IMG/VR virus record: IMGVR_UViG_3300013131_000024
Coordinates: 32,001-96,000 of that record
DNA from: a virus
Direction: 5' to 3' (one strand)
DNA length: 64,000 nt
Notes under the pieces: model-generated
What the model was told of the DNA's origin: nothing
What the model saw: the letters and a program-made list of their open reading frames with translations, nothing else
Databases searched by the model: none
Shown: positions 27,007 through 52,783 of the stretch, one piece after another
Layout: the number at the start of each line of letters is the position of its first letter
Numbering within the stretch: position 1 is the stretch's first letter
Translations under genes and position numbers: made by a program

Positions 27007-27069
27007 GGCTTTACTTCTTTAATACGACATAAATATATTGAGTTAGGAAATTTCCAGGAGTTGAGAATT

Positions 27070-28509: not shown

Positions 28510-29151
28510 ATGAAAGATTATTACATCTGCTCCGCAAAATATCTTATTCTAGATATATCATATCCATATGATGAAATGTTAGACGAAGCTAGAAGACTTA
28601 GCCATCGTTTCGTACCTCACAGATCAGCTTTATCTAAAGGTTGGGAATCTTTAACACTGCATGGCCTAGGTGAAGATAAAACCGGAAGTTTTGAAGATTA
28701 TGGATACAAGAACGGAGGAGATGCAGCTAAAGATATGTATTGGACTAAGGCAGCAGATGAATCTCCGATAACGAAAAATTTTTTATTGAATAATTTTCCA
28801 AGTAAAAGATTCGGTAGAATTCGTCTAATGAAACTTAAGGCAGGTGGGTTTATCGGACTTCACTCTGACAGTAGTAGACCTGTTATAGAAAATATAAATT
28901 TAGTACTAAACAATCCTCAACATTGTTTATGGATATGGGGGGATGGCACCGAAGTGTTTATGGATCCTGGCAAAGCCTACGCTATGAATGTTCATTATCA
29001 ACATAGTGTTTACAACAATAGCTATGAAGATAGATATCACATGATTGTAACAAGACACGATTCAACTGATAAATGGAAAGAGATAGTACTGAAAGCATCT
29101 AAAGAAACAGGAGAATTAGGCTATTTTGAAAAAATTGATTATCTACCTTAA
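28510..29151 (+). CDS. Asp/Asn beta-hydroxylase-like 2OG-Fe(II) oxygenase
   Basis: R-x-M-x-L...HSD...HSVYN...RYHMI. Confidence 0.8.
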   Translation: MKDYYICSAKYLILDISYPYDEMLDEARRLSHRFVPHRSALSKGWESLTLHGLGEDKTGSFEDYGYKNGGDAAKDMYWTKAADESPITKNFLLNNFPSKRFGRIRLMKLKAGGFIGLHSDSSRPVIENINLVLNNPQHCLWIWGDGTEVFMDPGKAYAMNVHYQHSVYNNSYEDRYHMIVTRHDSTDKWKEIVLKASKETGELGYFEKIDYLP

Positions 29152-30549
29152 TATTATTGGCGATGTCCAGTCTTTGCTATGCCATTTTGGTTTATTAAGA
29201 ATGTTGATATCTGTTAAATTAAATTTACAGACTCGATCTTTATAAACTTGCGTAGATTTATCGCAAAATCCATCTGCAGCTCTAGCAGAGAATGAAAGAA
29301 AAATTTCCGGATTTTTTTCTTGTAATTTATAAATTAATCTGTTCTCGGCTGCTATTCTATACTTAAGACTTGAAGTATAAGAGAGTGGTGTATAATTAAA
29401 TACATCACTAACATTATAAAAAGTATTTGCAGTATTATCTACCCAATCAAGATTATATGTGCCTAAATAATTTATTAAAATAAAACCATACTGAAGATTT
29501 TTAATTCTGTTCCAAGTCATGTCCCAATCGTAGAATTTTGATTTAAATTTTTCCCATAATATATTAGATTGTATATAATATTCTTCAGGTATATGTATAG
29601 GACCCGATGGAAAATTTTTGTTGATAAAACTTTTATAAAATTCTCCGTAATTTTCTCCACTCCATTGGCTTATCATTAAGCTCATAAATTGTAGACATTG
29701 TGGGTTCACATCGGTAATTACGACTTTGGTTTTATTTGTTGTACCTAGAATATTTAAATTATTAATCCAATTAAAACCTGTGCCTGTAGTGATATATTGC
29801 TCAATAGGACCTTGACAATTTATATTATCTAATAGACTATCTGAATTGTGCGAAGGAACAAAATTAGATCCGAAAAATTGATAATAATATAAGTCAGCAA
29901 CTTCTTTTAAAAAAACATGATCGTGTTCATAATAAAGATATTTTTTATAGTTCCTTATATCGCCTAAATCTATTATTTTTTTTTCCTTTAACAATAATTT
30001 AGATATAAGATTCCACCCGTGCTTTTTACCCACATATGTTTTTTTATTTTTTCCTGTTTTAATCCAAAGAGGAACATAATCGTCGTGTACATTTTCTTCA
30101 CTTCTTATTGGCTCTATCTGATCATGATATTCATCTTGTTCATAGCCCATCTCTGGCATATCGATATCGGAATAGTCATATAAATTTAAAATATAGAACT
30201 GATGATGTAATTCGTAATAATATTCTTTTCTATCTAAAATGTGTCCTGCTAAACTAAAATCTGTAGAACAAAGTTTTTCAACAGACTCAAATAGTTTATC
30301 GTTCATTTTTAAACTTGTACCAGTCGAAATAAAAACAGCATACTTGTATTCTTCATATACTGCCATTTTAGCTAATAGATCTTCAGATTCTCCTATGAGA
30401 ATATCAAACCTTTCATGACATTTAAATATAAATTGATCTGTAAGATTAATTGATATCTCTTTAGCCCAGTTAGTTTGACAATTATTAGTATTATCAATAA
30501 TGCAAAATACTATGGGTTTTTTCTTGCTAACACTAAATTTTATTGCCAT
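29143..30549 (-). CDS. Hypothetical protein (possible methyltransferase-like C-terminal half)
   Basis: 468-aa ORF; TGTGF and ITDVN only weakly suggestive. Confidence 0.6.
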   Translation of the reverse strand: MAIKFSVSKKKPIVFCIIDNTNNCQTNWAKEISINLTDQFIFKCHERFDILIGESEDLLAKMAVYEEYKYAVFISTGTSLKMNDKLFESVEKLCSTDFSLAGHILDRKEYYYELHHQFYILNLYDYSDIDMPEMGYEQDEYHDQIEPIRSEENVHDDYVPLWIKTGKNKKTYVGKKHGWNLISKLLLKEKKIIDLGDIRNYKKYLYYEHDHVFLKEVADLYYYQFFGSNFVPSHNSDSLLDNINCQGPIEQYITTGTGFNWINNLNILGTTNKTKVVITDVNPQCLQFMSLMISQWSGENYGEFYKSFINKNFPSGPIHIPEEYYIQSNILWEKFKSKFYDWDMTWNRIKNLQYGFILINYLGTYNLDWVDNTANTFYNVSDVFNYTPLSYTSSLKYRIAAENRLIYKLQEKNPEIFLSFSARAADGFCDKSTQVYKDRVCKFNLTDINILNKPKWHSKDWTSPIILR

Positions 30550-31106
30550 TTTGGAAACCTACTAAGTTGTCGTAAAAATTTTTCTGCATCTAATTGCCAT
30601 ACAGTTTGTAATGTTTCTCTATAAAATACTTGTCCTATATTTTTTAGGACACCTTGTTTTTCTAGAGCAGGACCAAATATATTGTTAACTCGACGCTGTG
30701 TTCCTACATCACTTTCGTTAGATGTTATGTAAAGCTTAGACGTTGGTGGAGCCCATTCAATACATTTGGGTATTAGAAATTGAGAAGTAGGATTTTGATA
30801 TTCGGTTATAACTCTAATAGTTCTTAAGGCTCGTCCATACGAACCCTCTATTTCATCAGTTAATACACACGTTCTGGCTGCTATTCTATAACTTCCTTCT
30901 CCCATAACATCTTCGAAACTATGAGCAGCTACACTTCCGATTGGTTTAGATTTAAAATACAATATCCAGACCTGTTTTTCTTTTTCATTATTAAAGCAAT
31001 CAACTAATTTTTTCTGGCTACAATTATTCAAAAAACCTTTAGCTTTAGCTCTTTCATAGAAATAAGATAAATCTAGATCTTCAGACCAAGGAATTACGTA
31101 GAACAT
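30540..31106 (-). CDS. GNAT-like protein
   Basis: IGSVAAH...YRIAAR...LYITSN pattern. Confidence 0.5.
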   Translation of the reverse strand: MFYVIPWSEDLDLSYFYERAKAKGFLNNCSQKKLVDCFNNEKEKQVWILYFKSKPIGSVAAHSFEDVMGEGSYRIAARTCVLTDEIEGSYGRALRTIRVITEYQNPTSQFLIPKCIEWAPPTSKLYITSNESDVGTQRRVNNIFGPALEKQGVLKNIGQVFYRETLQTVWQLDAEKFLRQLSRFPKWQ

Positions 31107-31789
31107 AAAATCTTATCGATAAATTCAGACGAATAGTTATTCCTAAAACTATTCCAACAAAGTTTTTCAAGTATTTTAAAACTTTGAGGTTCCTCCCATT
31201 TTATATTTAAGATGTCAAGATGTTTTTTCATTTCATTTTGTCTTGTAGAATATATATGACTTTCAACGTCTTTTATACTGATGTTAGGTTCATCTTCGTG
31301 ATACGTGAAAAAATAATTTATACTTTTTAGTTTTCCTTGGACTATAAAATAGCTACTTGGATGCATACTGAATTTGTATAGTTTTAAAAATTTATGAGCT
31401 TTAATTATGTCAATCATCTGCTCTTGCCAATTTGGTAAAACGATATCATAATTTTCAGTAGCGCATCCTGCCTGCTCCCAAAAATCAACACCGTCTATTT
31501 GTAAATATATTTTTCTTTCAGTATAATCTATATCCAAAATAAAAGGAACATGCATAGGAAATGAACTGTGCATTATTTTTAGGAATTTAACTTCTCTTTC
31601 CCACTTTTCCTCCATCTTATCTGGATCAATAATCTCATTCATTCCTTTATGATAATTATTGTCGTTATAATACCATTGGACAAATGTTTTTTTGTCTTTG
31701 CTTATTAAGCTAGTGTAAATTAAATTATTTCGACAATTTCCCTTACCCGGAACATTGTTGTAATAGTATTCGTATTTCATAGATAGCAT
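31094..31789 (-). CDS. Kinase-fold-like protein
   Basis: EREVKFL...PFILDID...; paralog of 40311-41003. Confidence 0.5.
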   Translation of the reverse strand: MLSMKYEYYYNNVPGKGNCRNNLIYTSLISKDKKTFVQWYYNDNNYHKGMNEIIDPDKMEEKWEREVKFLKIMHSSFPMHVPFILDIDYTERKIYLQIDGVDFWEQAGCATENYDIVLPNWQEQMIDIIKAHKFLKLYKFSMHPSSYFIVQGKLKSINYFFTYHEDEPNISIKDVESHIYSTRQNEMKKHLDILNIKWEEPQSFKILEKLCWNSFRNNYSSEFIDKILCST

Positions 31790-31825
31790 ATTAATTTATC
31801 AATAAATATCTCGACCAAAATAAAA

Positions 31826-33304
31826 ATGTTAAAATGTATATTGTTCAATGTAGCCAGCGGAACTAATTTCGCAGGAAATGGTAGATCCGTTGGGGTTTAC
31901 AGAATCTCTCACCATCTTCGAGAAGAAGGTTGGGATGTAGAAGTTATAGATTTTGCTAACGAATGGAGTTTAGAAGATCTTAAATTACTTGCTAAATCAA
32001 GGATGCATGGCGGACTAAAATTTTTTGGATTCAGTCATATGTATTCAATATGGACTGAAACCTTAGAGAAATTTTGTCAATGGATTAAAAAAGAGTATAG
32101 TGACATAGTTCTAATATCTGGCTCTAGTGTATCACCTCAATTTACGTCTATACATTTAGATTTTTATATTCAAGGATTCGGAGAAAACGCTATAACAGCT
32201 TTACTATCATGGTTGTTTGGCAACGGACCTAAACCAATTTTTTCTATATTCAAAGCAAACGGAAAACCATTAATTGCTGCCAACGACAATTATCCTTCAT
32301 ATCCAAGGAGAAACTTAAATGTAATTTACGAAGATAGAGATTTTATCGAATCAGAAGAGTGGTTAGGCATAGAATTTTCTAGAGGATGTAAATTTAGTTG
32401 TGATTTTTGTAATTTTCCAGTATTAGGCGTAAAAGGTGATTATACCAGAGATGCCGAAAATTTTGAAATACAGATAAAAGATGCTTATGATAGATTTGGT
32501 GTTACTAACTATTTGGTATCAGACGAAACATTTAATGATCGTACAGAAAAAATTACTAAATTTGCAGATATAATAGATAAATTAGATTTTAAACCTTGGT
32601 TTAGCGGATTTATACGTCCTGATCTCTTAATTAACAGACCGCAGGACAGAGAAGAACTGCTACGCATGAATTTTTTAGGTCACCATTATGGTATAGAAAG
32701 TTTTAATTACAAAGCAGTTAAATCTATTGGAAAAGGTATGAATCCTGAAAAGGTTAAACAGGGTCTTATAGATGTTAGAAAATATTTTGAAAATAATGGA
32801 ATTAAAAAATACAGAGCTTTATTAACTTTTATCATAGGTCTACCTCATGAAACAAAAGATGACATTGAACGAACCACTAGATGGTTGATAGAAAATTGGC
32901 AAGGACAGTCATGGACTCCCTTCGTTCTGGAGATCCCCGTTGGGGAACTTAATAGAAAAAGTAAGATGAGCATGAACTATGAGAAATATGGCTATAGAAT
33001 TTTTCAAGGAGAGCACAAACATCTAGAGTATAAACAGGCAAGAGTATCTAAAGATTTGTTAATTTGGGAGCATGATCATATGAATTATTTCGATGCCTAT
33101 GATTTATTTTACAAAATGATAGAATCAAGAAATGATTTAAATAATAATTTTACTTTAGCTCCTTGGGATCTAGCTATGATAGGTCTTCCAGGAAACGTCT
33201 ATGATCGACTCATGTTACACAATTCATGTTTACAGGACAAAATTATAGAAGAAAATAGAATAAAATTTATACAAAGATACATAAGGAAAAAATTAGAATG
33301 TTAA
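31826..33304 (+). CDS. Radical SAM enzyme with N-terminal B12-binding-like domain
   Basis: SRGCKFSCDFC, DETFND, GIES, IIGLP. Confidence 0.9.
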   Translation: MLKCILFNVASGTNFAGNGRSVGVYRISHHLREEGWDVEVIDFANEWSLEDLKLLAKSRMHGGLKFFGFSHMYSIWTETLEKFCQWIKKEYSDIVLISGSSVSPQFTSIHLDFYIQGFGENAITALLSWLFGNGPKPIFSIFKANGKPLIAANDNYPSYPRRNLNVIYEDRDFIESEEWLGIEFSRGCKFSCDFCNFPVLGVKGDYTRDAENFEIQIKDAYDRFGVTNYLVSDETFNDRTEKITKFADIIDKLDFKPWFSGFIRPDLLINRPQDREELLRMNFLGHHYGIESFNYKAVKSIGKGMNPEKVKQGLIDVRKYFENNGIKKYRALLTFIIGLPHETKDDIERTTRWLIENWQGQSWTPFVLEIPVGELNRKSKMSMNYEKYGYRIFQGEHKHLEYKQARVSKDLLIWEHDHMNYFDAYDLFYKMIESRNDLNNNFTLAPWDLAMIGLPGNVYDRLMLHNSCLQDKIIEENRIKFIQRYIRKKLEC

Positions 33305-34767
33305 AATGTATTTTGTTTAACGTTGACAACGGTCCCTTAACTAGAAGACCAATAGGAGCACATAGAATAGCTCATTTTTTAAGAGAAAACAATTGGGATG
33401 CTGAAGTAATAGATTTTTTCAAATTTTGGAGTTTTGATCAACTACAACAATTAGCTAAACAAAAATTTACTCCAGATGTTAAATGGATCGGAATTTCTTA
33501 TCTTTTTTTGTCATCTCCTATCGAATCTGTTGATAATTTTTTCTTGTGGGTAAAAAAGGAATATCCACATATAAAAATCATAGTAGGAAGCCCGATACAG
33601 TATAATCAAAAATCTGTGTACGTTGACTATAATATATCTGGGTTCGGAGAAAACGCTCTGTTAGAACTATTAAAATATCTTTTCAGCAATGGAGCGTCAC
33701 CGAAATTTTCGTTGGCTACCCATGCCGGAAAACAGATACTAGCTAATGAAATGTACCCTTCTTATCCTATGAAGAGCCTCAATATAATCTATGAAGATAG
33801 AGACTTCATCCAGCCAGAAGAGTGGCTAGGCATTGAATTTGCTAGAGGTTGTAAATTTAGTTGTGCTTTCTGTAATTTTCCAGTTATAGGTGTTAAAGGA
33901 GATTACTCTCGAGATGCGGAAGATTTCGAAGTACAGATCAAGGATGCCTATGATAGATTTGGTGTAGAGAACTACTGGGTTTCAGATGAAACGTTTAATG
34001 ATCGCACGGAGAAAATCACCAAGTTCGCTGATGTTGTTGAAACACTTTCATTTACTCCATATTTTACCGGATTTATTAGACCTGACCTGTTAATCATTAG
34101 ACCACAAGATAGAGAAGAACTTCTGCGAATGAATTTTTTAGGTCACTTTTACGGCGTTGAAACTTTTAATCAAGAAACTGGAAAAATTATAGGAAAAGGT
34201 ATGGATCCTATTAAAATGAAAGAAGGATTGATAGCTATACGTAAATATTATGAACAATATGAAAATAGAAGATATCGGGGCAGTATAAGTTTAATTGCAG
34301 GGCTACCTTACGAATCGATTGACAGTATTTTACAAACCAAAGATTGGTTGATAGAAAATTGGCAAGGACAAAATTTTACCATGTATCCATTAGAGATTGG
34401 AGTTGATGAATTTGATAATCCATCAAAAATAAGTAAAAATTGGAAAAAATATGGTTATGTAGATGCATCTAACGATCCTGATATAGGACACCATTTCGCA
34501 CACATAGGAAATATGCAAATGAATAAAATTTTTATTTGGAAAAATGATTTCACTAATCTTAAAGAAGCCAGCGACATAGCGTATCTATATTGGAAAGAAA
34601 AATACAATACTGGAAACGATTTTAGACTTAGCAACTTTGCATTATTACATTTAGGATTACCTAAAAACTTAGATGAAAAATTTTCTGTAAAAGATACCGA
34701 AGAGATAGAAATGTACTCGGCAAATAAAATTATACAAGATTATATAGAGAAAAAATTAAACAATTAG
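33298..34767 (+). CDS. Radical SAM enzyme with B12-binding-like domain (tandem paralog)
   Basis: ARGCKFSCAFC; highly similar to upstream gene. Confidence 0.9.
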   Translation: MLKCILFNVDNGPLTRRPIGAHRIAHFLRENNWDAEVIDFFKFWSFDQLQQLAKQKFTPDVKWIGISYLFLSSPIESVDNFFLWVKKEYPHIKIIVGSPIQYNQKSVYVDYNISGFGENALLELLKYLFSNGASPKFSLATHAGKQILANEMYPSYPMKSLNIIYEDRDFIQPEEWLGIEFARGCKFSCAFCNFPVIGVKGDYSRDAEDFEVQIKDAYDRFGVENYWVSDETFNDRTEKITKFADVVETLSFTPYFTGFIRPDLLIIRPQDREELLRMNFLGHFYGVETFNQETGKIIGKGMDPIKMKEGLIAIRKYYEQYENRRYRGSISLIAGLPYESIDSILQTKDWLIENWQGQNFTMYPLEIGVDEFDNPSKISKNWKKYGYVDASNDPDIGHHFAHIGNMQMNKIFIWKNDFTNLKEASDIAYLYWKEKYNTGNDFRLSNFALLHLGLPKNLDEKFSVKDTEEIEMYSANKIIQDYIEKKLNN

Positions 34768-34777
34768 TTACGAAAAA

Positions 34778-35845
34778 ATGAAAAAATTGTCAGATACTCT
34801 TTCTGTTTGTGAATTTTGTTATAGACATGTGCCAGCCATACGATTTGAAAGAGATGGAGGAATCTGGTTGTGGAAAAAATGTAAATGGCATGGAGAATCA
34901 GAACATTTAGTCGAGCCTGATGCAAGTTTTTATTTAAATTATACCTACATAAGAAAACAATTAGAAAGTTACATGATTGATATAACCAATAAATGTAATC
35001 TCACTTGTCCAAACTGTCATCAAGAACCGAATAATAATTCAAAAGATTTACCTATAAATTTTTTTATAGATATCATATCATCATGGCCAGATAACGGTTG
35101 GCCAGTAGCACTTTGTGGGGCAGAACCGACTATTAGAAAAGATTTACCTGAATTTGTAGAAGCCATTAATTCTATGCCAAGAAAGAAACGTGATATTATT
35201 ATCCTCACCAACGCTGTGCGACTGGCTGATGAAAATTATACGCAGCAATTTATTGCCTACAACAATATCTACTGGACTATTGGGTTAAACCATCCTGAAT
35301 ATCAAGGGCATAAGGTTAGAGAAAAACAAATTAAAGGAATTGAAAATTTAGTAAAATATAAACAAAAAATTAAGAATATCAGTTACACTTTAGAAATACT
35401 AGGACAAATGGAGTATTGTCTTGAAGAGTTACAAGAATTTTCAAAAAAATATTGTAAGGCCTTTAGAGTAAGGACAGGTGTTGATATTGGCAGATATCCA
35501 GGAGGTCCAAAAGTGTATATGTCAGATTTAGTCAAAGAAATGAATAGAGTGGCAGAAAAAAATAAATGGCCAATTGAAAAAATTAATGACCAAGGTAATA
35601 GAGCTCATTACGCTGTGTTAATTAATGATGTGCCAGTAAAAATTATTCAATGGCCAGATGCACAAACATTAGATTTAAGAGAAATACAAACGGAAGCTTT
35701 TGGAGATTTTGTACCTAACAAACCAGCATCTCCGCTGATCCATCAAATTATTTTACGAGATGCACACATTAACAAAGGTCTTCCTCTATATGATACCATT
35801 CCACAGGAATATTTAGATAATTATGGCAATCATAGGAATCAATAA
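34778..35845 (+). CDS. Radical SAM enzyme with N-terminal CxxC...CxxHG domain
   Basis: CNLTCPNC, GAEP, TNA. Confidence 0.9.
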   Translation: MKKLSDTLSVCEFCYRHVPAIRFERDGGIWLWKKCKWHGESEHLVEPDASFYLNYTYIRKQLESYMIDITNKCNLTCPNCHQEPNNNSKDLPINFFIDIISSWPDNGWPVALCGAEPTIRKDLPEFVEAINSMPRKKRDIIILTNAVRLADENYTQQFIAYNNIYWTIGLNHPEYQGHKVREKQIKGIENLVKYKQKIKNISYTLEILGQMEYCLEELQEFSKKYCKAFRVRTGVDIGRYPGGPKVYMSDLVKEMNRVAEKNKWPIEKINDQGNRAHYAVLINDVPVKIIQWPDAQTLDLREIQTEAFGDFVPNKPASPLIHQIILRDAHINKGLPLYDTIPQEYLDNYGNHRNQ

Positions 35846-36632
35846 TTTACCTTATATAGATATGGAACCATACTTAGATATGGATATCTTTGAAAAATTA
35901 CAGCCTGAAATCTACACAGGATTTTCGTTGGCTAGAGAATATGCCAAAGAAGGAACTTGGATGCAGCCTGGATTTTCTATGAAAGATATGAGCTATATTA
36001 TAAATTGGAAACCAATATATAAAGCAATGGAAGAGTTTCAATCATTGCCGGACGACAACCCAATTAAAAAGGAAGGAATAAAGTTAATGCCATCCGATTT
36101 CAAAGATTTTCGTCAAAGAAATATTTTTACAAGATATTTAAAAATGGCTATGGGAGCATACGATCCTTACATTTATTATTTTTTATGGGAAGAAGGCGAT
36201 TGGAATAACAGAGAAAAAGAACGTAAGATGACCGACGAAGCAAAATATTTTCCTTCTGTTGTAGAATGGGTATTGAATCTTCAAAAAACACAGATATTTG
36301 AACATATTGGTAGAGTAATATTTTTCCACTGTGAGGCAGACGGCATTCCATTTGAACATAGAGATCTAGATGCCCAAAACGGCATAGACATAATTAAACC
36401 TCATCGAAACGAATTTATACATATTAGACCTGATACAAAAAAATCATTTTATATTTGGGATCCAAAAAAGAAAAATAAAATTTATCTTAATACAAGAGCA
36501 GCATGGTGGAATGACGTGGACTGGCATGGAGGAGAGAGGATTATGGAACAGAGTTATAGCTTACGTGTAGATGGCAGGTTTACCGATGAGTTTCGGAAAC
36601 GTTTAGGTATAAATCACTTGGATAATTATTAA
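35823..36632 (+). CDS. 2OG-Fe(II)-type (cupin) protein
   Basis: EHRD...WHGG...R pattern; paralog of next gene. Confidence 0.6.
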   Translation: MAIIGINNLPYIDMEPYLDMDIFEKLQPEIYTGFSLAREYAKEGTWMQPGFSMKDMSYIINWKPIYKAMEEFQSLPDDNPIKKEGIKLMPSDFKDFRQRNIFTRYLKMAMGAYDPYIYYFLWEEGDWNNREKERKMTDEAKYFPSVVEWVLNLQKTQIFEHIGRVIFFHCEADGIPFEHRDLDAQNGIDIIKPHRNEFIHIRPDTKKSFYIWDPKKKNKIYLNTRAAWWNDVDWHGGERIMEQSYSLRVDGRFTDEFRKRLGINHLDNY

Positions 36633-37405: not shown

Positions 37406-37896
37406 ATAATTATAAAGATTGGATAGATTCGTCTTTAACTAATTACCTTTTGAACAACGAAGGAATCTTAAGGCCAAATATAGGAACTAATCCCGATGTC
37501 GAAGAATTTAAAAATGCTGAAAAAGCAGGATACGATCTTAGAAAAACATGGTGGCACATTTATGAACCAAATATTTTGCCATTTACAATTAAATTACCTA
37601 TAGAATCGAATAGATCGTCGATATGGTGGTTCATTAAACTACTACCGGGAGGAATGATGCCCATGCATCGAGATCCTCATGTAAGATTTGATAATGTAAA
37701 AAATCCTACAAGGTACTGGATGCCTCTACAAGATTACGAACCGGGCCATATTTTTGTCTATAATAATGTCGTTCTTACCGATTACAAAGCTGGAGATCTT
37801 TGGAGCTACGGGGACAGCGATGAGCTTCATGGCGCTTGCAACATCAGTTATATTCCAAGGTTAACATTTCTTTTTACGATATATGACATCCCATGA
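37393..37896 (+). CDS. 2OG-Fe(II) oxygenase-like protein
   Basis: PMHRD...HGACN...R. Confidence 0.75.
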   Translation: MHFIDNYKDWIDSSLTNYLLNNEGILRPNIGTNPDVEEFKNAEKAGYDLRKTWWHIYEPNILPFTIKLPIESNRSSIWWFIKLLPGGMMPMHRDPHVRFDNVKNPTRYWMPLQDYEPGHIFVYNNVVLTDYKAGDLWSYGDSDELHGACNISYIPRLTFLFTIYDIP

Positions 37897-41668: not shown

Positions 41669-41711
41669 AGTGAAAAATATTTATGTACTATTATTATCGT
41701 GTAAATATATT

Positions 41712-44533: not shown

Positions 44534-45362
44534 TCTTGATACAAATCGATACAAGAGATTTTTTTCTTTTGGTTGTAGTTTTACTAATTATTTCTGGCCT
44601 ACGTGGGCTGATATAATTGGTCGACAAATAGATCATTACGAAAATTGGGGGAAGGGTGGAGCCGGGAATCAGTTCATCTTTAACTCACTAATTGAATGTC
44701 ATAGACGAAATAAGTTTACCAAAGAAGATCTTGTTGTAGTGATGTGGACCAGTTGTAGTAGAGAAGACCGATATGTTAACAACGAGTGGTTAGTGGCCGC
44801 TTCAGAAAACAGAGAAGAAATATATGGTAAAGAATGGATGAAAAAGTTTGGTCAACAAAGCAAAGGTTTAATGATAAGAGATTTTGCTGTTATAGATGCG
44901 TCTCAAAAACTTTTAGATTCGTTCGGATGCGATTGGTTAAACTTATGTAGTTTGCCTCTGATTAGATTTGATTTTGAAAAAGCAGAACAAGATATTAAAA
45001 AAAATTATATAACTCTGGATGAAATAGAAAATAGATGGTGTAAACAACAACTGTCGTTATCAGAAGGAGGATCATATAGAGATCATTATCTAACAGATAT
45101 AGACGTAGTAGATCTGTACAAAGATATCTTTACAAAAATAAAAAGACCTTTATACGAAATAGTACGTAAAAACAAGCCCAGACCTAATTTTGGAGATCAA
45201 CATCCTAGCCCCCTAGAGGCCTTATCTTACATAAATGAAGTTGTTGATAATAATTTAGACGTCCTTGAATATTGTAATCATTGGAACGATATAGTTTTCA
45301 ATATTAAAAATAAATCATCAATACCTGTTAAGTTTTTTAGACCGGCACCTATAAGATTTTAA
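44520..45362 (+). CDS. SGNH-hydrolase-like protein
   Basis: FGCSFT...GAGN...DQHP. Confidence 0.65.
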   Translation: MLLTNLDTNRYKRFFSFGCSFTNYFWPTWADIIGRQIDHYENWGKGGAGNQFIFNSLIECHRRNKFTKEDLVVVMWTSCSREDRYVNNEWLVAASENREEIYGKEWMKKFGQQSKGLMIRDFAVIDASQKLLDSFGCDWLNLCSLPLIRFDFEKAEQDIKKNYITLDEIENRWCKQQLSLSEGGSYRDHYLTDIDVVDLYKDIFTKIKRPLYEIVRKNKPRPNFGDQHPSPLEALSYINEVVDNNLDVLEYCNHWNDIVFNIKNKSSIPVKFFRPAPIRF

Positions 45363-46323
45363 ATTTAGTTGTGTTTATTTCTGGCTGACAAAAACATTTG
45401 TTTCTAGTACATGTTGTCGGAATAATTTTAGGATTAAAATTATTCTTAAAATTTTTATCGAATATATTAAATTGATAAGGAAGGTCATAAAGATTTTCTC
45501 CACACGCTCCTTGGATAGAACCAGATTTATCAATATATAATGTATCTATTCCGATATTACATTTCCAACCGTCAAAAGAGTTTAAAGAATTTAATGAAAT
45601 CCAATTATGCGGAACTTTTTTTGTGCTATTATCATTAAATGTGACTGTACTTTTTTTATCTGGAATAGTTTGAGCTTTTAACCACCAGAAGACATTTGGA
45701 ATTCTTTTTAGTGATTTAGACAAATATTTTTTTTGATCTTCGGTATATCTTATAGAATGATGATGCACTTCTTGAGCATCTATAGGCCAACTTTTATTAC
45801 TGCCTTTCAAAGTCTCAATTAAATGAACGCACTGATTCCATGCTGTTGGATCCATTAATACTTTTACAGACAAACTCTTGTTTTTACTGTAAAGTAAATC
45901 TCCAACTTTTATTATGTGGGCAGGATCAACAAACTGGTGATGACAGCTTATCATCGTGTGATCAAAATTCTGACCATTTTCATCCCACCATTTCAATGTC
46001 CTACTCCCATTGGTAGAAATGCTTATCAAAGTGTTATAATTTTCTTTAAAGTATGAAACAAAATCTGTAAGATTCGGCCAAATAGTTGGTTCTCCACCGA
46101 TAATATGAAAATAAAAACGTTCTTTATTTTGATGTTGTTTATAATAATTTAATAAATGACTTAAATTATCAATTAGAAGATCGTAATCCGGCCAACGATG
46201 AGTTCCTTCGTTTGATCCGGGAAAGCAATACCAACATCGATGATTACATACGTTGAACAAGAATAATTCAATTCTTAAATAATTATTCGGTAAATTGGAT
46301 TCTATTTTAATAATTTCTTTCAT
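45349..46323 (-). CDS. Radical SAM enzyme
   Basis: CNHRCWYC, GGEP, TNG. Confidence 0.9.
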   Translation of the reverse strand: MKEIIKIESNLPNNYLRIELFLFNVCNHRCWYCFPGSNEGTHRWPDYDLLIDNLSHLLNYYKQHQNKERFYFHIIGGEPTIWPNLTDFVSYFKENYNTLISISTNGSRTLKWWDENGQNFDHTMISCHHQFVDPAHIIKVGDLLYSKNKSLSVKVLMDPTAWNQCVHLIETLKGSNKSWPIDAQEVHHHSIRYTEDQKKYLSKSLKRIPNVFWWLKAQTIPDKKSTVTFNDNSTKKVPHNWISLNSLNSFDGWKCNIGIDTLYIDKSGSIQGACGENLYDLPYQFNIFDKNFKNNFNPKIIPTTCTRNKCFCQPEINTTKFKIL

Positions 46324-47735
46324 AATAAATTGCTTAGTTCCGGAAATGTTATTTTAAAATCTAATTTACGTTGATTATCTAAAGTCGTTATATATTCTCT
46401 AAAATCAGGTAATAAATTTGTATGGTCTTCACTGTCCATCCAATCGAGAATTCCTTCCCAGCGTTTCCAACCATATGAATTTACTTCCCAGAAGTCTTCA
46501 TCTTTGGTATAATTATGCCAAAGCCATTCTTTTAATTCGTTGAATAAATTTCGAATTTCTTCTTTATGTTCTTTTGGCAAAACTTTCAAACTTAGCCAGG
46601 TCGGAATCCATACGAGATGTGCGCTGAACAATCCTCCGCTATGTATCTCTCCTACTATGTTTTGATTAAGATTAATTTTCTTAAAATTTTGTGAAATCTT
46701 CCATTTTATAAAATCAGGTATATGTTTGATATTCAACAATTGAACTGCACATGCGATTGTTGTTTCGATGTTTTCTGGAGCATTGTCAAGCAAATGCAAA
46801 TTTTTTACTACGGTTTCCCAATCGGTCGGATATCGAATATAATGCAATCTATCCCCCATACCATCTATGCTGAATCCAAATTTCACTTTTTTAAAATTTT
46901 TCCATAGATTTATTGTATTCTCATCTAGAAGTAATCCGTTGCTATTATATCTAAGTTCGATATCTTTTGCATATCCCTGTTTTATTATTTCTTCCAAGAA
47001 TCTCCTGTGTTCTTTAATCATTAGAGGTTCACCACCTGCAAAATAAATTTGTTTTATGTTAGGAATTTGTTCATAAATTTCTTTCCAAAAATTTAAATTC
47101 TCATGCCACAGATTATTAAATTTGTCTTGCTGCCAGCTCAATTGTTTTTTGATTAAAGAACTATTGAATAAAGGATAAATCTTTTTATGATCCTCTACCC
47201 ATTTGCTGCTGTCATGCGGACTACACATAACACATTTTAAATTACAGGTATGACCTAATCTTAAATCAATATAATGTAATTTATAAGGAACCCTACCGTC
47301 TAGGTCTGTCTGGGCAATTAATGATGGAATATCTATGCCTTGCTTATGCCATACGCCAGTTTCCCAAATACGTTTACTTACAACTCCGTTTTGTTCTTCT
47401 TCGAAACATTTTTTACAACTTAAAGGAATTTTTCCTTCTAACATCGTTTGTCTAACATTTCGCATGTATTCGCTGTTAAATGATTCCGATGGCGAATCTT
47501 TAGAAAAATTTGCAGATTCTCCAGTTTCTGTTTTTACAAGACCTACATTATAATTTCCATCTTTGGCACCACTGGCATTTGCAACACAACATATTCGCAT
47601 ATCTCCATTCGGTCTAGTAGCCAAATGTATCCATGGAAGAACACAGAAGCTAGGGCTTCCACTAATGTCTTCTATTTGTTTTTGCCAACTACCTAACTGT
47701 GATTCTTGAGATTGCATCCAGAATATTTTATTCAT
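46320..47735 (-). CDS. Radical SAM enzyme with N-terminal SPASM/twitch-like domain
   Basis: CVLPW...CC; CNLKCVMC; GGEP. Confidence 0.9.
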   Translation of the reverse strand: MNKIFWMQSQESQLGSWQKQIEDISGSPSFCVLPWIHLATRPNGDMRICCVANASGAKDGNYNVGLVKTETGESANFSKDSPSESFNSEYMRNVRQTMLEGKIPLSCKKCFEEEQNGVVSKRIWETGVWHKQGIDIPSLIAQTDLDGRVPYKLHYIDLRLGHTCNLKCVMCSPHDSSKWVEDHKKIYPLFNSSLIKKQLSWQQDKFNNLWHENLNFWKEIYEQIPNIKQIYFAGGEPLMIKEHRRFLEEIIKQGYAKDIELRYNSNGLLLDENTINLWKNFKKVKFGFSIDGMGDRLHYIRYPTDWETVVKNLHLLDNAPENIETTIACAVQLLNIKHIPDFIKWKISQNFKKINLNQNIVGEIHSGGLFSAHLVWIPTWLSLKVLPKEHKEEIRNLFNELKEWLWHNYTKDEDFWEVNSYGWKRWEGILDWMDSEDHTNLLPDFREYITTLDNQRKLDFKITFPELSNLL

Positions 47736-48819
47736 TGAATTGATCTAATTTTAAAAATTGGTCTTTGCTTTTGCTTATTTGATGATTTTTAAAAACTCCA
47801 CAGGTTCTCGAACATGCCCTGAGCGGACTATTTTCAAAAGAATCTATCCATAGTGTTTGCCACTGATCGCTGTCGACAATCTCTTCTATAGTTTTATTTT
47901 GCAAATTAAAATTCTCTAGTCCTCCAAACTTATCTATAAATTCAAAAAACGTTTGGCGACTATCTTCTTGAAATGAATGAACTAGCTGATCGGATTTTGT
48001 ATAAATGTAAGGAACTGCGCCTACAAAACAGCAGGGCCATAAATACCCATTAGCATCGATGAAAATACTCTTTGTTTTTTCTACATCGCAATTTATTTTT
48101 ACTTCGCTGAAAATTTTTCTATAATTTTCTACAGTTTTTTTATCAATAAAAGCTAATTTATGAACCGTAGGCATTTCTAATTTATGTGAAACTTTTCCTT
48201 CTTTGTTATAAACTTCATAATAAGGGGTTCCAATAAATCTACTTGTTTGTTTTTCAAAGAAACTATCGAATCCGAGAGTTTTTGCTAATTTTTTACATTC
48301 TTCTAATTGATGTTCATTGTGCTTAAATGTAATAAAAACCCATCGTGCATTTCCCCCTGCTTCGATAAATGATTTTGAATTATCGATAATTTTGTTCCAG
48401 TCAGTTCCGATTCTGTAAAGGGAATGCGTATCGGCTAGGCCATCTAACGCAAAATGCACTAAATGATTAGTCGGTAATGCAAGTGCAAGGTCTTTCCACC
48501 ATTTTGTTGACCTAGCTCCGCCATTTGTATGGATATCAATTTTTATTTTTGGAGATACTTTTTTAATATATTCTGTTATAGGTATAAGATCTTGGTTAAG
48601 TATAGGATCTCCAAAATTTCCGCACATAGAAATCTGATGCAATTGAGATAACAAATCAGGTGAAACTATTTTTTTAAAAAAATCTAAATCAACATCTTTT
48701 ACCTTCAAAATAGGATTAGGCAACCCTCCATGATGATTTCTCGCACACATAGGACAACTTGCCTGACAATTAGAGGATAGCTCAAGATGTAATTCTTTTA
48801 AATCTTCGTATCGATACAT
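47728..48819 (-). CDS. Radical SAM enzyme with C-terminal SPASM/twitch-like domain
   Basis: CQASCPMC, GDP, TNG, PCC. Confidence 0.9.
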   Translation of the reverse strand: MYRYEDLKELHLELSSNCQASCPMCARNHHGGLPNPILKVKDVDLDFFKKIVSPDLLSQLHQISMCGNFGDPILNQDLIPITEYIKKVSPKIKIDIHTNGGARSTKWWKDLALALPTNHLVHFALDGLADTHSLYRIGTDWNKIIDNSKSFIEAGGNARWVFITFKHNEHQLEECKKLAKTLGFDSFFEKQTSRFIGTPYYEVYNKEGKVSHKLEMPTVHKLAFIDKKTVENYRKIFSEVKINCDVEKTKSIFIDANGYLWPCCFVGAVPYIYTKSDQLVHSFQEDSRQTFFEFIDKFGGLENFNLQNKTIEEIVDSDQWQTLWIDSFENSPLRACSRTCGVFKNHQISKSKDQFLKLDQFNE

Positions 48820-49433
48820 TATACTTTACCTATGATCATGAATCTTTTATATAAAGATAATTCTAATTCTCTCGACCAAAGAACTTGGATATTAGATTGT
48901 TTTATAAATTCTTCTAGAGAACCGGCTGTCCTCACATGTTCTGGTATGTTATAGTTGTTGCTTTGTAAAACAATTATACTGTTTTGAGGTTGGCCACTGA
49001 GCCATAGATCGTATTGATCCTGCGTAATATGTTCGCAACTGGTATTGATAATGATATCAGCATCACTTCGCATAATACACATGTCTGCGGTTACTGCTCT
49101 AAAACGACCTCCCATTTCTTCTTTCTTATTCATCATAGTTGCTATAGATTCACAGTCTGGATCTATATCAATGCTACGAATATTACTGATAGGAATATCG
49201 CTTTGGAACAACATACTGGCCAACACTCCTACCCATCCGCCGTGTACGTCGACACTTAATGGAAAGTCTAAAACTTTGTTTATTTCAGTATAGATATAAT
49301 ATTCTAAGTTTTCAATTAACCATTCTTTGCTTTGTATTTGTCCTCGCCAGAATGCATCAAGGGTACGCATAGGATCCTTGCTTTCACGAATAGCACACAT
49401 CCAATAATGTAAATGTTCTGTATCAATTTGCAT
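48819..49433 (-). CDS. Class I SAM-dependent methyltransferase-like protein
   Basis: GGWVG, SIDID, INTSCEH. Confidence 0.7.
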   Translation of the reverse strand: MQIDTEHLHYWMCAIRESKDPMRTLDAFWRGQIQSKEWLIENLEYYIYTEINKVLDFPLSVDVHGGWVGVLASMLFQSDIPISNIRSIDIDPDCESIATMMNKKEEMGGRFRAVTADMCIMRSDADIIINTSCEHITQDQYDLWLSGQPQNSIIVLQSNNYNIPEHVRTAGSLEEFIKQSNIQVLWSRELELSLYKRFMIIGKV

Positions 49434-50427
49434 GAATAGGTATAATCTTTTTACTGTTGTTAATCTTTCTCTTCGGCATGACAGTTTCAACACTGCAAAC
49501 ACAAGAAGTTTGACTACATATCGCTGGTTTAATAGAGGGATTAAATTTTTTTGTAAAGTCTATATCATAAAGATTGTATGAGAAGTCATTTCCATATAAA
49601 ACTTGATTACAACTTCCTTGTATGTTACCTTCTTTTGATACATTGACCCAATGAACACCTACACTACATTCCCATCCATAAAAATTATTCAACTTTTTTA
49701 GTAGGATTTCGTTGTCCTTAAACTTATGTTTTTTATTATTTAAATCAGTTACCACTACAGAACTTCTATAATATTTGTTATTTTTCCAAAAGAAAAACGG
49801 ATTTACTTTACGTGCTCTATGTTTAGATAAAATTTTCTTTTGTTCTTCTGTATAATCTACAGTATTGTCGATAATTTCAACATACCTAATAGTCCATCTA
49901 CGTCTACTACCTTTTAAGTATTCAACCAATTCTAAACACTTGTCCCATTCACGGGGATCCATCATTACTGATACACTTACTACAATATTTTTCTCATACA
50001 AATGATCACATAGATTTCTAAATTCTTCCTTGTCGACAAATTCATGATGGCAACTCATATGCACTCGATCAAAATACTTTGCGTTCTGTTCCCACCAGTC
50101 TAATTTCTTAGAACCGTTAGATGTCATAGATATTAAACAATTAAATTCTTCTTTAAGAAACTTTATAAACTCTGGTAATTTAGGCCAATGCGTAGGTTCA
50201 CCGCCACAAAAATGAACATCGAATACTTTTTTATCTGTATAAGTTTTATAATAATTTATAAAATGAGAAATATTTTGTTTTATTACATCTATATCAGGAA
50301 ATTTATGAGTACCTACATTTGACCCTGGCCAACAATACCAACATTTGTAATTACAGTAATTGCCGAGATTTATGTCAATGTTTAATACTTCTTCTCGCCA
50401 ATTATTCTTTATTTCGATTATATCCAT
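49423..50427 (-). CDS. Radical SAM enzyme
   Basis: CNYKCWYC, GGEP, SNG. Confidence 0.9.
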   Translation of the reverse strand: MDIIEIKNNWREEVLNIDINLGNYCNYKCWYCWPGSNVGTHKFPDIDVIKQNISHFINYYKTYTDKKVFDVHFCGGEPTHWPKLPEFIKFLKEEFNCLISMTSNGSKKLDWWEQNAKYFDRVHMSCHHEFVDKEEFRNLCDHLYEKNIVVSVSVMMDPREWDKCLELVEYLKGSRRRWTIRYVEIIDNTVDYTEEQKKILSKHRARKVNPFFFWKNNKYYRSSVVVTDLNNKKHKFKDNEILLKKLNNFYGWECSVGVHWVNVSKEGNIQGSCNQVLYGNDFSYNLYDIDFTKKFNPSIKPAICSQTSCVCSVETVMPKRKINNSKKIIPIHAN

Positions 50428-51124
50428 ATTGTACCATTTTAATATTTAATCTTGTCTTATCTCCTGGATAGTCGGTAATGATATCAGTTAGAGTATTTGC
50501 AAATAACTCATTTCCTTTTAAGGTATAATGATTACCTGACGGTTTTTTAAAATTTAAAAAATATTTTTCCTGTTCTTCTGCATATGTGTATAAAGGTATA
50601 CCAATAGTAACTCCTTTATCAAAAGTATAATTAGAATAATCCCCATCAAACCCAAAAAAATGTACAATCTTTTCTATACTATATTTTTTAACTATATCGT
50701 CTAGTTCCTTAAACCATTGATGTACTGCCCAATTATAAAAATCAAATGACATTAGATGTTTGTAATATTGAAATGCAGCTTGATGCACTTCATCGGGCAT
50801 CTTATATTCTTTATCGTTTACATTAATTAACCTAGTTTCGACACTTCGAAAATTAAGACCTACATCGTTATCATTCGGAATTCGATATGGTTCTGTATGA
50901 CATACTATCAGTATTTTGGGTATGCTAATTTCCAATTCTTTTAAAATAATTTTCCTGTAAGACCACCAAGATCCGCCCGGCATTCCTTTGCCTCTCGGTT
51001 GTCTTTTTGAATTAAATGTCTCTCCTGTTAAATTACTAACTAGAATTTGAGGCCAGTGATATTTCTTGTTTCTGTCTGAACAAAAACTATCTCCGACTAT
51101 TAATATATCATTCCAATTATACAT
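50402..51124 (-). CDS. SGNH-hydrolase-like protein
   Basis: GDSF...NH. Confidence 0.6.
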   Translation of the reverse strand: MYNWNDILIVGDSFCSDRNKKYHWPQILVSNLTGETFNSKRQPRGKGMPGGSWWSYRKIILKELEISIPKILIVCHTEPYRIPNDNDVGLNFRSVETRLINVNDKEYKMPDEVHQAAFQYYKHLMSFDFYNWAVHQWFKELDDIVKKYSIEKIVHFFGFDGDYSNYTFDKGVTIGIPLYTYAEEQEKYFLNFKKPSGNHYTLKGNELFANTLTDIITDYPGDKTRLNIKMVQYGYNRNKE

Positions 51125-51155
51125 GCTTATACTTTACATCCGTCTAAATTTATTT

Positions 51156-51812
51156 CTAATCGCACTTAGCTCGATCTCTTAAGAAATGTTTTACAACTCC
51201 GTAAGGTTTATGATACGGAATATCGTTGCTTATATTTAAAAACTCTAAAATCTGTTTGGCAAATGCTTGATTGCATTCTATACCCGGATGACATTTATCA
51301 AGAGCATAAGGATAAAATTCACTTAATCTAATAATATAAACAGGAATATGTCTAACTGTGTCATTTGACAATGTTAATATTGTGTTTATAGAATCTTTAA
51401 CAATTAAATTATATGTTTGTATATTTTTAGATTTTAAAAACACGTTAGCATGGTTAACAAATAATTTTGACATTAGATTAGCATCAAAAACATCATAAAA
51501 ATCTTTGTAGTACTCGCAATCAGATCTTACATTAATATCAATGACGCGATCTTGTTTTATAATTGCACTTCGATCTGGGTACGACCATAAAATAAAAACA
51601 GTATCTGTTTCAATAAAATTAAAATTAAGTATAGTATTCCAGATTCGTTTATTACTAGATCCCGGACTAGCCATGTTTATACAATGTCTATTCATATATT
51701 TTGCAAGAATAGTAGGCCATCCTAATTGACTAGGAGTAGGACACGGGTTAACACAATCAGGAAGACCTTGTCCATATGTCAACGAGCATCCAAAAGTTAT
51801 CAATCTTTCCAT
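51156..51812 (-). CDS. SGNH-hydrolase-like protein
   Basis: FGCSLT...GSSN...DKCHP. Confidence 0.65.
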   Translation of the reverse strand: MERLITFGCSLTYGQGLPDCVNPCPTPSQLGWPTILAKYMNRHCINMASPGSSNKRIWNTILNFNFIETDTVFILWSYPDRSAIIKQDRVIDINVRSDCEYYKDFYDVFDANLMSKLFVNHANVFLKSKNIQTYNLIVKDSINTILTLSNDTVRHIPVYIIRLSEFYPYALDKCHPGIECNQAFAKQILEFLNISNDIPYHKPYGVVKHFLRDRAKCD

Positions 51813-52783
51813 TTTGGTATCTTACTGTCTGCTGAACTAACACATGTTGGGGTGATACAAATTTTTGATTCTTTAAAAAGTTCAAAATTAGTTATAGTAC
51901 CTAATGATATATCTTGACAACTATACGATCTTTTAACTTCACTACCTCTTATTATGATACTTTGATATCCTGAATTGCAATTCCATCCGGTGAATTTGTT
52001 AAATCCGTAAGCATTAAATCGTTCAGCTTGATCAATTAAATATTCTTTTTCGTTTTTATCGTAAAGAGATATCTGATACACATCTTCACCGTTCGTTTGT
52101 TGAGGAAATCCGGTTTTCATCAGTCTGGTCATCTCATCGGTATAACCATCTACTACACAACTTGCAGTAGGATCACTCTGCGGTTTTAAAGTCACATTGA
52201 TTCCTCTTCGATATAATCGTTCGCAACGTTCGTATAATTCGTAAAATTTTTCCGGTACCATTACTTGATTAACTGTTAAGAAAACATTTTCATAAATTAA
52301 CTGTAAACATTTATCTCCAAATTCTTGTTCTTTAGCATGTTCTGCATGATAACTAGCAGTTATACTACGGCGTTGTAAATCTTTAGTAATACTACACCAA
52401 GATCCCCACCATTTCGACCCTGGACTAAGGTTCGTAGTCATATGAACACTTTGGTATGGGGTTGTTGGACCATCATCTAAATATTGTATTAGATGTAAGA
52501 GATCTTTATAAGCAGTAGGTTCTCCGCCGCTAAAACTCCAATGAAACTCCATGAAATCATTTTGCCTAGCCTGACGTTTAATTTCATCTATGGTGCGTTT
52601 ATAAACTGCAAGTTCTTGATGGTCAAGTTCATCGCTTCGAGCATAAGGCCAACAATAAGAACAATTATAATTACAGAATCTTCCCAATATCCAGCTTACA
52701 GAAAACAAAGGACGAGACAACATAGTTCGTTGTCCAAATTTAACAATATGTTGAAAAGGAATTTTTTGAAAATCGTGCGTCAT
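51800..52783 (-). CDS. Radical SAM enzyme
   Basis: CNYNCSYC, GGEP. Confidence 0.9.
   Translation of the reverse strand: MTHDFQKIPFQHIVKFGQRTMLSRPLFSVSWILGRFCNYNCSYCWPYARSDELDHQELAVYKRTIDEIKRQARQNDFMEFHWSFSGGEPTAYKDLLHLIQYLDDGPTTPYQSVHMTTNLSPGSKWWGSWCSITKDLQRRSITASYHAEHAKEQEFGDKCLQLIYENVFLTVNQVMVPEKFYELYERCERLYRRGINVTLKPQSDPTASCVVDGYTDEMTRLMKTGFPQQTNGEDVYQISLYDKNEKEYLIDQAERFNAYGFNKFTGWNCNSGYQSIIIRGSEVKRSYSCQDISLGTITNFELFKESKICITPTCVSSADSKIPKWKD

Follow-up and report, generated by a model that had tools for sequence, protein, structure and literature searches.

In the pelagimyophages and cyanomyophages, a hypervariable "host recognition cluster" lies beside the tail fibre genes and contains glycosyltransferases together with radical S-adenosylmethionine (SAM) cassettes, with no function assigned (PMC7029224), and the Campylobacter phages CP220 and CPt10 carry 11 to 12 radical SAM genes, among them an exchangeable module of five genes, again with no function assigned (PMC2853527). 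Here we analysed an island of putative tailoring enzymes found at positions 28510 to 52783 (about 24 kb) of a 64,000-nucleotide stretch of viral DNA, hereafter the window, which corresponds to bases 32001 to 96000 of the 109,857-base IMG/VR record IMGVR_UViG_3300013131_000024 (G000; CheckV completeness of about 31%). The public sequencing runs containing this stretch are lake-water metagenomes. With ten radical SAM enzymes and eight Fe(II)/2-oxoglutarate (2OG) oxygenases in 24 kb, none of which falls in a characterised family, the island ranks among the densest concentrations of radical and oxidative enzymes that are known from viruses, and it is an uncharacterised-core version of the known fibre-side "host recognition / hyperplastic island" theme. 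We tentatively propose, with somewhat less than even confidence and on the strength of sequence comparison, that its enzymes carry out the cytoplasmic tailoring of a sugar-type scaffold tied to host recognition.

The likeness to the host recognition cluster lies in the variable, fibre-side location, in the radical SAM cassettes, the AspH-type genes and the sugar enzymes, and in the fact that the Pelagibacter phage Mosig has a homologue of one island gene, the methyltransferase-like o24. However, the host recognition cluster belongs to T4-like phages and our island to an uncultured freshwater jumbo phage, the cultured pelagiphages show no match to the N-terminal-twitch (N_Twi) radical SAM family described below, and the island of the window has no glycosyltransferase and a far higher density of radical SAM and 2OG enzymes. 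The Campylobacter phages CP220 and CPt10 share with it the radical SAM modules and carry homologues of the island gene o23 at 24% identity; this similarity is distant, however, and they have neither the N_Twi core, nor the array of AspH-like genes, nor the link to Bdellovibrionota. Our literature search found no account of N_Twi radical SAM enzymes or of such an island in jumbo phages.

The CxxxCxxC motif occurs in ten open reading frames (ORFs) of the island, all of which exceed the Pfam Radical_SAM (PF04055) cut-off (32.9 to 54.3 bits against 29.5), and the whole 110-kb contig yields no radical SAM match besides these ten. They comprise two B12-type, two N-terminal-twitch, one SPASM and one Zn-ribbon protein, along with four small proteins with extra C-terminal Cys residues, as follows:

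o05, 31826..33304, plus strand: B12-binding-type radical SAM protein (Pfam Radical_SAM 54 bits, B12-binding 24 bits; top NCBIfam matches to B12-type radical SAM families)
o06, 33298..34767, plus strand: B12-binding-type radical SAM protein, paralogue of o05 (52% identity)
o07, 34778..35845, plus strand: radical SAM protein with an N-terminal Zn ribbon of the HMPTM, TrsS, Tes type (Pfam Zn_ribbon_HMPTM 45 bits, Radical_SAM 35.6 bits)
o18, 42331..43644, plus strand: N-terminal-twitch radical SAM protein, start codon uncertain (NCBIfam NF033640 340.2 bits, cut-off 170)
o19, 43637..44533, plus strand: small radical SAM protein with an extra C-terminal Cys cluster, usually beside o18
o21, 45349..46323, minus strand: small radical SAM protein, paralogue of o25 (43% identity)
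o22, 46320..47735, minus strand: N-terminal-twitch radical SAM protein, core gene (NCBIfam NF033640 405.7 bits, cut-off 170)
o23, 47728..48819, minus strand: radical SAM protein with a C-terminal SPASM domain, core gene (Pfam Radical_SAM 32.9 bits; SPASM 22.2 bits, cut-off 21.5)
o25, 49423..50427, minus strand: small radical SAM protein with an extra C-terminal Cys cluster
o28, 51800..52783, minus strand: small radical SAM protein, core gene, at the conserved right edge of the island

These results bear out a first-pass annotation, made by a model from the sequence alone, which had counted ten CxxxCxxC radical SAM proteins and called several of them SPASM/twitch-like. Its description of two of them as bearing B12-binding-like domains stands in part: the best NCBIfam matches of o05 and o06 are exclusively to B12-type radical SAM families, with scores far under the family cut-offs, but their Pfam B12-binding domain scores (24.1 and 24.8 bits) remain under the cut-off of 32.1.

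The two N-terminal-twitch proteins, o18 and o22, exceed as whole proteins the cut-off of the NCBIfam model NF033640 (N_Twi_rSAM), and they carry conserved N-terminal Cys residues in addition to the CxxxCxxC motif. In particular, the Pfam SPASM match precedes the radical SAM domain (residues 26 to 86 in o18 and 31 to 110 in o22), and in proteins of this type C31, C107 and C110 are invariant, and C50 nearly so, in addition to the CxxxCxxC motif. NF033640 is itself a sequence model for which we found no characterised member; in the present case the family has many paralogues and stands at the core of a phage island of several enzymes. The four small proteins (o19, o21, o25 and o28) belong to one paralogous family of about 300 amino acids, in which three extra C-terminal Cys residues (C269, C309 and C314) are invariant; we infer that these residues bind an auxiliary cluster. 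N_Twi and small radical SAM genes tend to be placed side by side, the o19 type being adjacent to the o18 type in 39 of 54 cases. Homologues of o23 were found in 31 genome loci among the matches listed.

Eight further proteins (o01, o08 to o13 and o16) resemble AspH and other 2OG oxygenases, in agreement with the "about eight" first counted; motifs, fold and family matches support them, the case of o16 being weak:

o01, 28510..29151, plus strand: AspH-type 2OG oxygenase (Pfam Asp_Arg_Hydrox, PF05118, 40.4 bits, cut-off 22.6)
o08, 35823..36632, plus strand: protein with a 2OG-Fe(II) oxygenase fold (predicted model, pLDDT 87)
o09, 36632..37405, plus strand: paralogue of o08 (33% identity)
o10, 37393..37896, plus strand: small AspH-like cupin oxygenase
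o11, 37893..38492, plus strand: small cupin oxygenase-like protein, a distant member of the o10 group (HxD..H motif visible, aligned in A6)
o12, 38489..39013, plus strand: small AspH-like cupin oxygenase, paralogue of o10 (39% identity)
o13, 39004..39621, minus strand: small AspH-like cupin oxygenase
o16, 41000..41668, minus strand: AspH-like oxygenase, weak (Asp_Arg_Hydrox 16.7 bits, below the cut-off; HxD and distal His present)

Within this set o01 alone reaches the Pfam Asp_Arg_Hydrox cut-off. The predicted model of o08 presents a double-stranded beta-helix fold, with VIA Z scores of 11.8 to 6n1f and 10.9 to AspH, and it lies equally near to oxygenases that tailor sugars or nucleosides (EvdMO1, AviO1, HygX and PolD, with Z from 9 to 10.4) and to peptide hydroxylases. 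The sequences of o08 and o09 do not match Asp_Arg_Hydrox, and a sequence-profile search of the PDB with o08 returned nothing useful; in their family alignment (A2), H179, D181 and H235, which make up the HxD..H motif, are invariant. In the alignment of the o10 to o13 family (A6), H92 and D94 show no variation, at least 90% of the rows retain H146, and Asp_Arg_Hydrox matches 5 of its 31 members (best E of 8e-5). Homologues of o16 occur in 45 related loci.

The island as a whole consists of 28 ORFs (o01 to o28), arranged in six blocks of alternating strand, with intergenic gaps of at most 36 nt and gene ends that often overlap. Its G+C content is 0.30 to 0.33, as opposed to 0.37 to 0.42 in the flanks. 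It is flanked on one side by an upstream array of 29 tRNA genes (17.3 to 24.8 kb of the window) and on the other by a tRNA-like RNA, and its immediate left neighbour is a fibre-like gene:

o00, 27061..28476, plus strand: fibre-like protein with an Mtd_N domain and DDSTI(L/M)VD repeats (Pfam Mtd_N 39.3 bits, cut-off 26.3)

Because the Mtd_N domain is present, the label "fibre-like" stands for o00, and with it the earlier description of enzyme genes densely packed on both strands directly after a tail-fibre-like gene. Two more fibre-like genes lie at 58.2 to 60.2 kb of the window. None of the 28 island proteins has a transmembrane-like segment and all are predicted to be soluble; their substrates would therefore be cytoplasmic.

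A scan of IMG/VR with o22 returned at least 80 viral loci, nearly all of which possess several more genes of the island. Those that recur are o28, o24, o23, o22, o21/o25, o19, o18, o17, o16, o15, o13, o12, o10, o08, o07, o04 and o03, and gene order, orientation and number of paralogues vary among loci, with a median of 6 and a maximum of 13 radical SAM genes per fetched locus. A homologue of o00 abuts the island both in a related locus (L033) and in a complete relative of 357.6 kb (G001), whose island of about 32 kb terminates at that homologue; on the right, the o28 edge has the same flanking genes in relatives. The island is thus lineage-wide and hypervariable, and it occupies a fixed genomic position beside fibre-like genes. 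Moreover, for every island gene compared with its best relative, the nonsynonymous divergence (dN) is far below the saturated synonymous divergence (dS), and ω does not exceed 0.38 in any case that allowed its calculation. The catalytic residues are conserved as well, and the genes, which are intact, are not degenerate. The purifying selection, together with the recurrence of the island in 80 or more viral contigs of lake and marine origin, therefore indicates that it is clearly useful to the abundant phages that carry it.

Cultured phages offer distant counterparts only. Megablast of the island against a phage collection gave no match, the flanks matching tRNAs alone, and tblastn against cultured phages found no match for o08 and o28 and no close version of the island in any of them. 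The matches of o22, o23 and o24 in cultured phages (RsoM2USA, Vibrio K566/K567, CP220 and Mosig) are all distant, and every gene in the neighbourhood of the RsoM2USA match is annotated as "hypothetical".

Closer relatives of the core occur in cellular genomes. The scan that revealed them was seeded by two short patterns, on which the taxonomic distribution given here depends. The best cellular matches of o22 among those listed (45 to 50% identity) are almost all in metagenome-assembled genomes (MAGs) of Bdellovibrionota, on contigs of up to 2.5 Mb, and o28 shows 46 to 51% identity to its counterparts in this phylum. In the Bdellovibrionota loci, o22 stands alongside homologues of o23, o28 and o24 and arrays of further N_Twi paralogues; o22, o23, o24 and o28 thus make up a core common to the phages and to Bdellovibrionota chromosomes. 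In the o22 tree (obtained with FastTree, a quick method, and with long branches), the viral and Bdellovibrionota orthologues form separate, well-supported sister clades, and the other paralogue subfamilies are likewise specific to viruses or to bacteria, which argues for old sharing and not for recent transfer. The Bdellovibrionota clusters with the core also contain GT2 glycosyltransferases, a NodU/CmcH-type carbamoyltransferase, a PP-loop protein of 383 amino acids and an AspH-like protein.

Two minor observations concern these neighbourhoods. A family of about 227 amino acids (c0), with an N-terminal stretch "IVFISY...N" and a "VVDGD" motif, lies beside o24/o22 in 23 viral and 12 Bdellovibrionota loci (for example at L047:4952-5635, plus strand, and at L087:9231-9941, minus strand) and is absent from the window; its motifs would allow the guess that it is GT-A-like, a homology search gave at least 4973 hypothetical metagenome proteins, unnamed and with no Pfam family, and a PDB profile search with the c0/c4 family gave nothing useful. 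Furthermore, a 1.8-kb contig of a MAG labelled "Bacteroidetes" (L149; CAIJZG010000054.1), which matches o22 at 75%, o24 at 64% and o23 at 41% identity, resembles a misbinned phage fragment.

The proposal that the scaffold is of the sugar type draws on the genes found around the core in relatives. Related phage islands carry, between radical SAM genes, a gene of the UDP-glucose 6-dehydrogenase family (E of 8e-21), and also an epimerase/dehydratase acting on nucleoside diphosphate (NDP)-sugars (E of 5e-28) and a StrB1/HsvA-type amidinotransferase (E of 9e-23). In Mosig, the o24 homologue lies in a fibre-adjacent variable island, near a carbamoyltransferase, an ArnB-like aminotransferase, an epimerase, an Asp_Arg_Hydrox protein and three MoaA-like radical SAM proteins, beside VrlC. 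Elsewhere in the genomes of the phage lineage, epimerases of the short-chain dehydrogenase/reductase (SDR) type, a GT1 and a DegT-like gene occur. The nearness of the o08 model to oxygenases that tailor sugars or nucleosides counts in favour of the proposal as well. We suggest that the enzymes would act inside the infected cell on a nucleotide sugar or on a glycan-like or aminocyclitol-like molecule, supplied by the host or by phage genes outside the island, and that the expected edits would be C-methylation, oxidation or epimerisation, hydroxylation, ATP-dependent amidation and acylation or deacylation. The product would be used at the host-recognition interface, that is, on the phage fibres or on the host envelope. 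What the phages have added around the core are further radical SAM paralogues and AspH-type Fe/2OG oxygenases, along with PP-loop ATPases, esterases or acyltransferases of the SGNH-like kind and proteins with an atypical kinase fold.

Several points weigh against the sugar-type scaffold. The island of the window has no match to GT2, GT1, SDR epimerases, DegT, NDP-sugar enzymes or carbamoyltransferases; in the absence of a glycosyltransferase or NDP-sugar enzyme there, the scaffold must therefore originate elsewhere. The sugar evidence comes entirely from the gene neighbourhoods of relatives and none of it from chemistry, and the Bdellovibrionota neighbourhoods are heterogeneous, with neighbours that are mostly housekeeping genes. 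Beyond generic superfamilies and NF033640, the scores of all island proteins stay under the cut-offs of the characterised sugar-tailoring families, and at E of 0.1 or less the N-acetyl sugar amidotransferase model gave no match to the two PP-loop proteins listed below. Furthermore, the SPASM/twitch radical SAM and AspH families classically modify peptides and proteins.

A broader and more doubtful proposal is that aquatic jumbo phages and predatory Bdellovibrionota share a pathway centred on radical SAM enzymes (N-terminal-twitch, SPASM and small twitch enzymes with a methyltransferase), which would perform a new carbon-centred sugar chemistry and which paralogue turnover would diversify in order to vary the decoration of fibres or host surface, as an enzymatic determinant of host range or exclusion. 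If sugar decoration at the host-recognition interface were true, phages would have a new route to vary or mask receptors, and untouched radical SAM families, NF033640 foremost, would become accessible to enzymology; the core shared with Bdellovibrionota could provide a cultured and genetically tractable way to this chemistry.

Some isolated genes were also noticed. The sole GT1 match of the contig (78 bits, in a 342-aa open frame) is at G000:C1:17154-17477, about 43 kb upstream of the island and outside the window, and another relative (G002) also has a GT1 match. In some islands of the related loci L060 to L066 (for example at L065:7839-9398 and L061:19246-20016), two kinds of gene were recognized, both by motifs only: one resembles flavin-dependent halogenases (GxGxxG, 519 amino acids), and the other, which has His boxes, resembles membrane fatty-acid desaturases.

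The remaining ten proteins of the island are PP-loop, SGNH-like, kinase-fold, methyltransferase-like and unassigned proteins:

o02, 29143..30549, minus strand: protein of 468 amino acids in a virus-dominated family, partner of o01 (no Pfam, PHROG or NCBIfam match)
o03, 30540..31106, minus strand: protein of 188 amino acids, unassigned, conserved in relatives
o04, 31094..31789, minus strand: protein-kinase fold lacking the catalytic Asp (AlphaFold pLDDT 94)
o14, 39597..40310, minus strand: PP-loop ATP pyrophosphatase with a QueC-like Zn tail (Pfam QueC 34 bits, C-terminal part only)
o15, 40311..41003, minus strand: kinase-fold paralogue of o04, with the DFG-like Asp kept and the catalytic-loop Asp absent
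o17, 41670..42398, plus strand: PP-loop ATP pyrophosphatase with a QueC-like Zn tail, paralogue of o14
o20, 44520..45362, plus strand: SGNH-like protein in which GCS replaces GDS
o24, 48819..49433, minus strand: Rossmann methyltransferase-like protein, core gene, whose homologues begin at Met24 of the longest ORF
o26, 50402..51124, minus strand: SGNH-like protein with the GDS motif
o27, 51156..51812, minus strand: SGNH-like protein with the GCS motif

In the o14/o17 family, the SGGADS motif and four C-terminal Cys residues are invariant, and a PDB profile search with the family returned nothing useful. The two had first been called QueC-like, a label that holds for the PP-loop and the Zn tail but not for QueC itself: with the QueC equivalog model TIGR00364, o14 scores 25.2 bits against a cut-off of 150 and o17 has no match. 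The three SGNH-like proteins keep their name, since S10, G51, N54 and H175 (blocks I, II, III and V) are invariant in alignment A7 and Lipase_GDSL matches 8 of 19 family members (best E of 6e-5), although o27 itself is not matched. The model of o04 shows a bilobal kinase fold, with a VIA Z score of 12.5 to RIO1, IRAK3 and IRAK4 over 168 to 191 residues, Bud32 being among the proteins matched as well. However, the catalytic loop of o04 and o15 reads K139-x-S-(L/M)-(H/Y)-P144, with K139 and P144 invariant and Asp missing; at the DFG position, Asp is confined to the o15 subfamily, the o04 subfamily having Asn there. Thus, of the two "kinase-like" proteins first announced, the fold is confirmed and the implied kinase activity is not; o04 and o15 may be atypical kinases, pseudokinases or proteins with another chemistry.

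The methyltransferase label of o24 is supported by the motifs DIHGGWVG, SIDIDP, DMC and NTSCEH, conserved across 15 sequences (A1), and by the nearest Atlas cluster with a Pfam family, Methyltransf_31 (21% of members, score 0.96). It has no Pfam match of its own, a PDB profile search reached PH1948 at E of 0.06, and its homologue in Mosig is annotated as a methyltransferase. The suggestion that o03 was GNAT-like is not confirmed, as Pfam, PHROGs, NCBIfam and a PDB profile search gave no match for it. PHROGs gave no match for 18 of the island proteins submitted. In the Atlas, o02 is found in virus-only clusters and in one cluster of 688 amino acids that carries AspH; in several loci o01 and o02 recur as a pair, and they also occur as a single fusion of about 660 to 688 amino acids in Bdellovibrionota and in viruses (including L089).

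Given the classical roles of the SPASM/twitch and AspH families, the radical SAM and AspH-type enzymes, with the methyltransferase and the kinase-fold proteins, could instead modify, before assembly, the side chains of a phage protein (for example that of the adjacent fibre-like o00) or of a peptide encoded elsewhere, in the manner of peptides made on the ribosome and modified after translation (RiPPs), which we consider unlikely. Such a role would be consistent with the SPASM/twitch domains and the AspH family matches, with partial NCBIfam matches to HxsB/C, ScmE/F, PapB and SkfB, and with the adjacency of island and fibre gene, kept in the window, in L033 and in G001; two B12-type radical SAM enzymes with 2OG oxygenases and a methyltransferase also recall the proteusin pathways. 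A known parallel is the HXS paired radical SAM system, with which the island shares the adjacency of N_Twi and small radical SAM genes and the partial matches to HxsB, HxsC or HxsC4 (o07, o18, o21, o22 and o25). However, these, like all the matches to peptide maturases, are far under the family cut-offs, and no His-Xaa-Ser or Cys-His-x-Ser repeat protein was found in six frames of the window or of the 110-kb contig, the fetched loci giving one spurious-looking match, in L030. Gaps of at most 36 nt leave no room for a precursor gene, the conserved small ORFs are only out-of-frame shadows of the enzyme genes, and what relatives embed in their islands is sugar enzymes, not peptidases, transporters or leader-binding proteins. 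That the same enzymes might make a diffusible molecule similar to an aminoglycoside or a nucleoside antibiotic, released or used inside the cell, for instance against competitors or host defences, has in our opinion a low probability. B12-type radical SAM methylases, twitch radical SAM dehydrogenases and epimerases, and 2OG oxygenases are all tailoring classes of these antibiotics, and the B12-type, 2OG and kinase-fold proteins of the island, together with the carbamoyl- and amidinotransferases of relatives, mirror them; the predicted solubility of all the proteins fits as well. The likeness to the pathways of BtrN, of GenK-type enzymes and of BlsE is precisely in these soluble classes found with 2OG oxygenases and carbamoyl- or amidinotransferases; BtrN and BlsE are among the weak PDB matches, and the fold of o08 resembles HygX, EvdO and PolD. 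On the other hand, the sequence similarity is only generic, o18 and o22 have their twitch at the N terminus, the kinase-fold proteins lack the catalytic Asp, and genes for a scaffold synthase, for export or for self-resistance were not observed among those of the island, in line with the first-pass annotation, which saw neither a scaffold-building enzyme nor an obvious precursor peptide. Moreover, the fixed position on the fibre side better suits a role in the virion or in host recognition.

A modification of nucleic acids or nucleotides, by which the phage DNA or its own tRNAs would be hypermodified or modified nucleotides produced, is quite improbable in our view. The PP-loop ATPases with their QueC-like Zn tail and weak matches of the TilS, NAD-synthase and MnmA types, the small radical SAM proteins, whose N-terminal core is like that of MoaA, viperin and QueE, the kinase fold nearest to RIO and Bud32, and the tRNA array, tRNA-like RNA and ThyX-like gene close by would all agree with it. 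However, neither the record (about 31% complete) nor its 100%-complete relative G001 contains a TGT/DpdA protein (PF01702), the QueC equivalog model, whose cut-off is 150 bits, gives only 25, the radical SAM likeness is confined to the generic N-terminal core, and the SGNH-like enzymes and the sugar-enzyme context of relatives do not fit. Bacterial AspH-family enzymes include lipid hydroxylases, and a remodelling of host membrane lipids or lipid A that alters the cell surface, by LpxO/OlsC-like hydroxylation and by deacylation, was therefore also considered; we regard it as very improbable. The weak top matches of o05, o06 and o07 are to the ladderane B12-type radical SAM family, HpnJ and Tes, and both the islands of related phages and the Bdellovibrionota neighbourhoods include genes that resemble fatty-acid desaturases. 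Nevertheless, the lipid-family matches are hundreds of bits under the cut-offs, and the remodelling of lipid A was set aside because no island protein has a membrane segment (0 of 28 with a transmembrane or signal-like hydrophobic segment). Thus, among the targets named in the first-pass annotation (virion proteins or glycans, a metabolite, nucleotides), the glycan or sugar option gains from the context of relatives, the peptide or protein option loses ground and the canonical 7-deazaguanine form of the nucleotide option finds no support, so that the tailoring of a sugar-type scaffold is the reading we prefer.

Finally, some features were noticed at the borders of the island. A scan for promoters and terminators within it showed no enrichment over shuffled sequence. 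Just before the fibre-like gene o00, a strong terminator-like hairpin (8 bp with 5 G-C pairs and a T run) is found at 26980-26999 on the plus strand, and it is followed by a promoter-like site at 27010-27039, ahead of o00. On the opposite side, some 0.9 kb beyond the right edge of the island, an ORF at 53673-54386 (plus strand) bears the ThyX signature RHRSFSFQEFSQRY and probably encodes a flavin-dependent thymidylate synthase; this ThyX-like ORF is syntenic in relatives.

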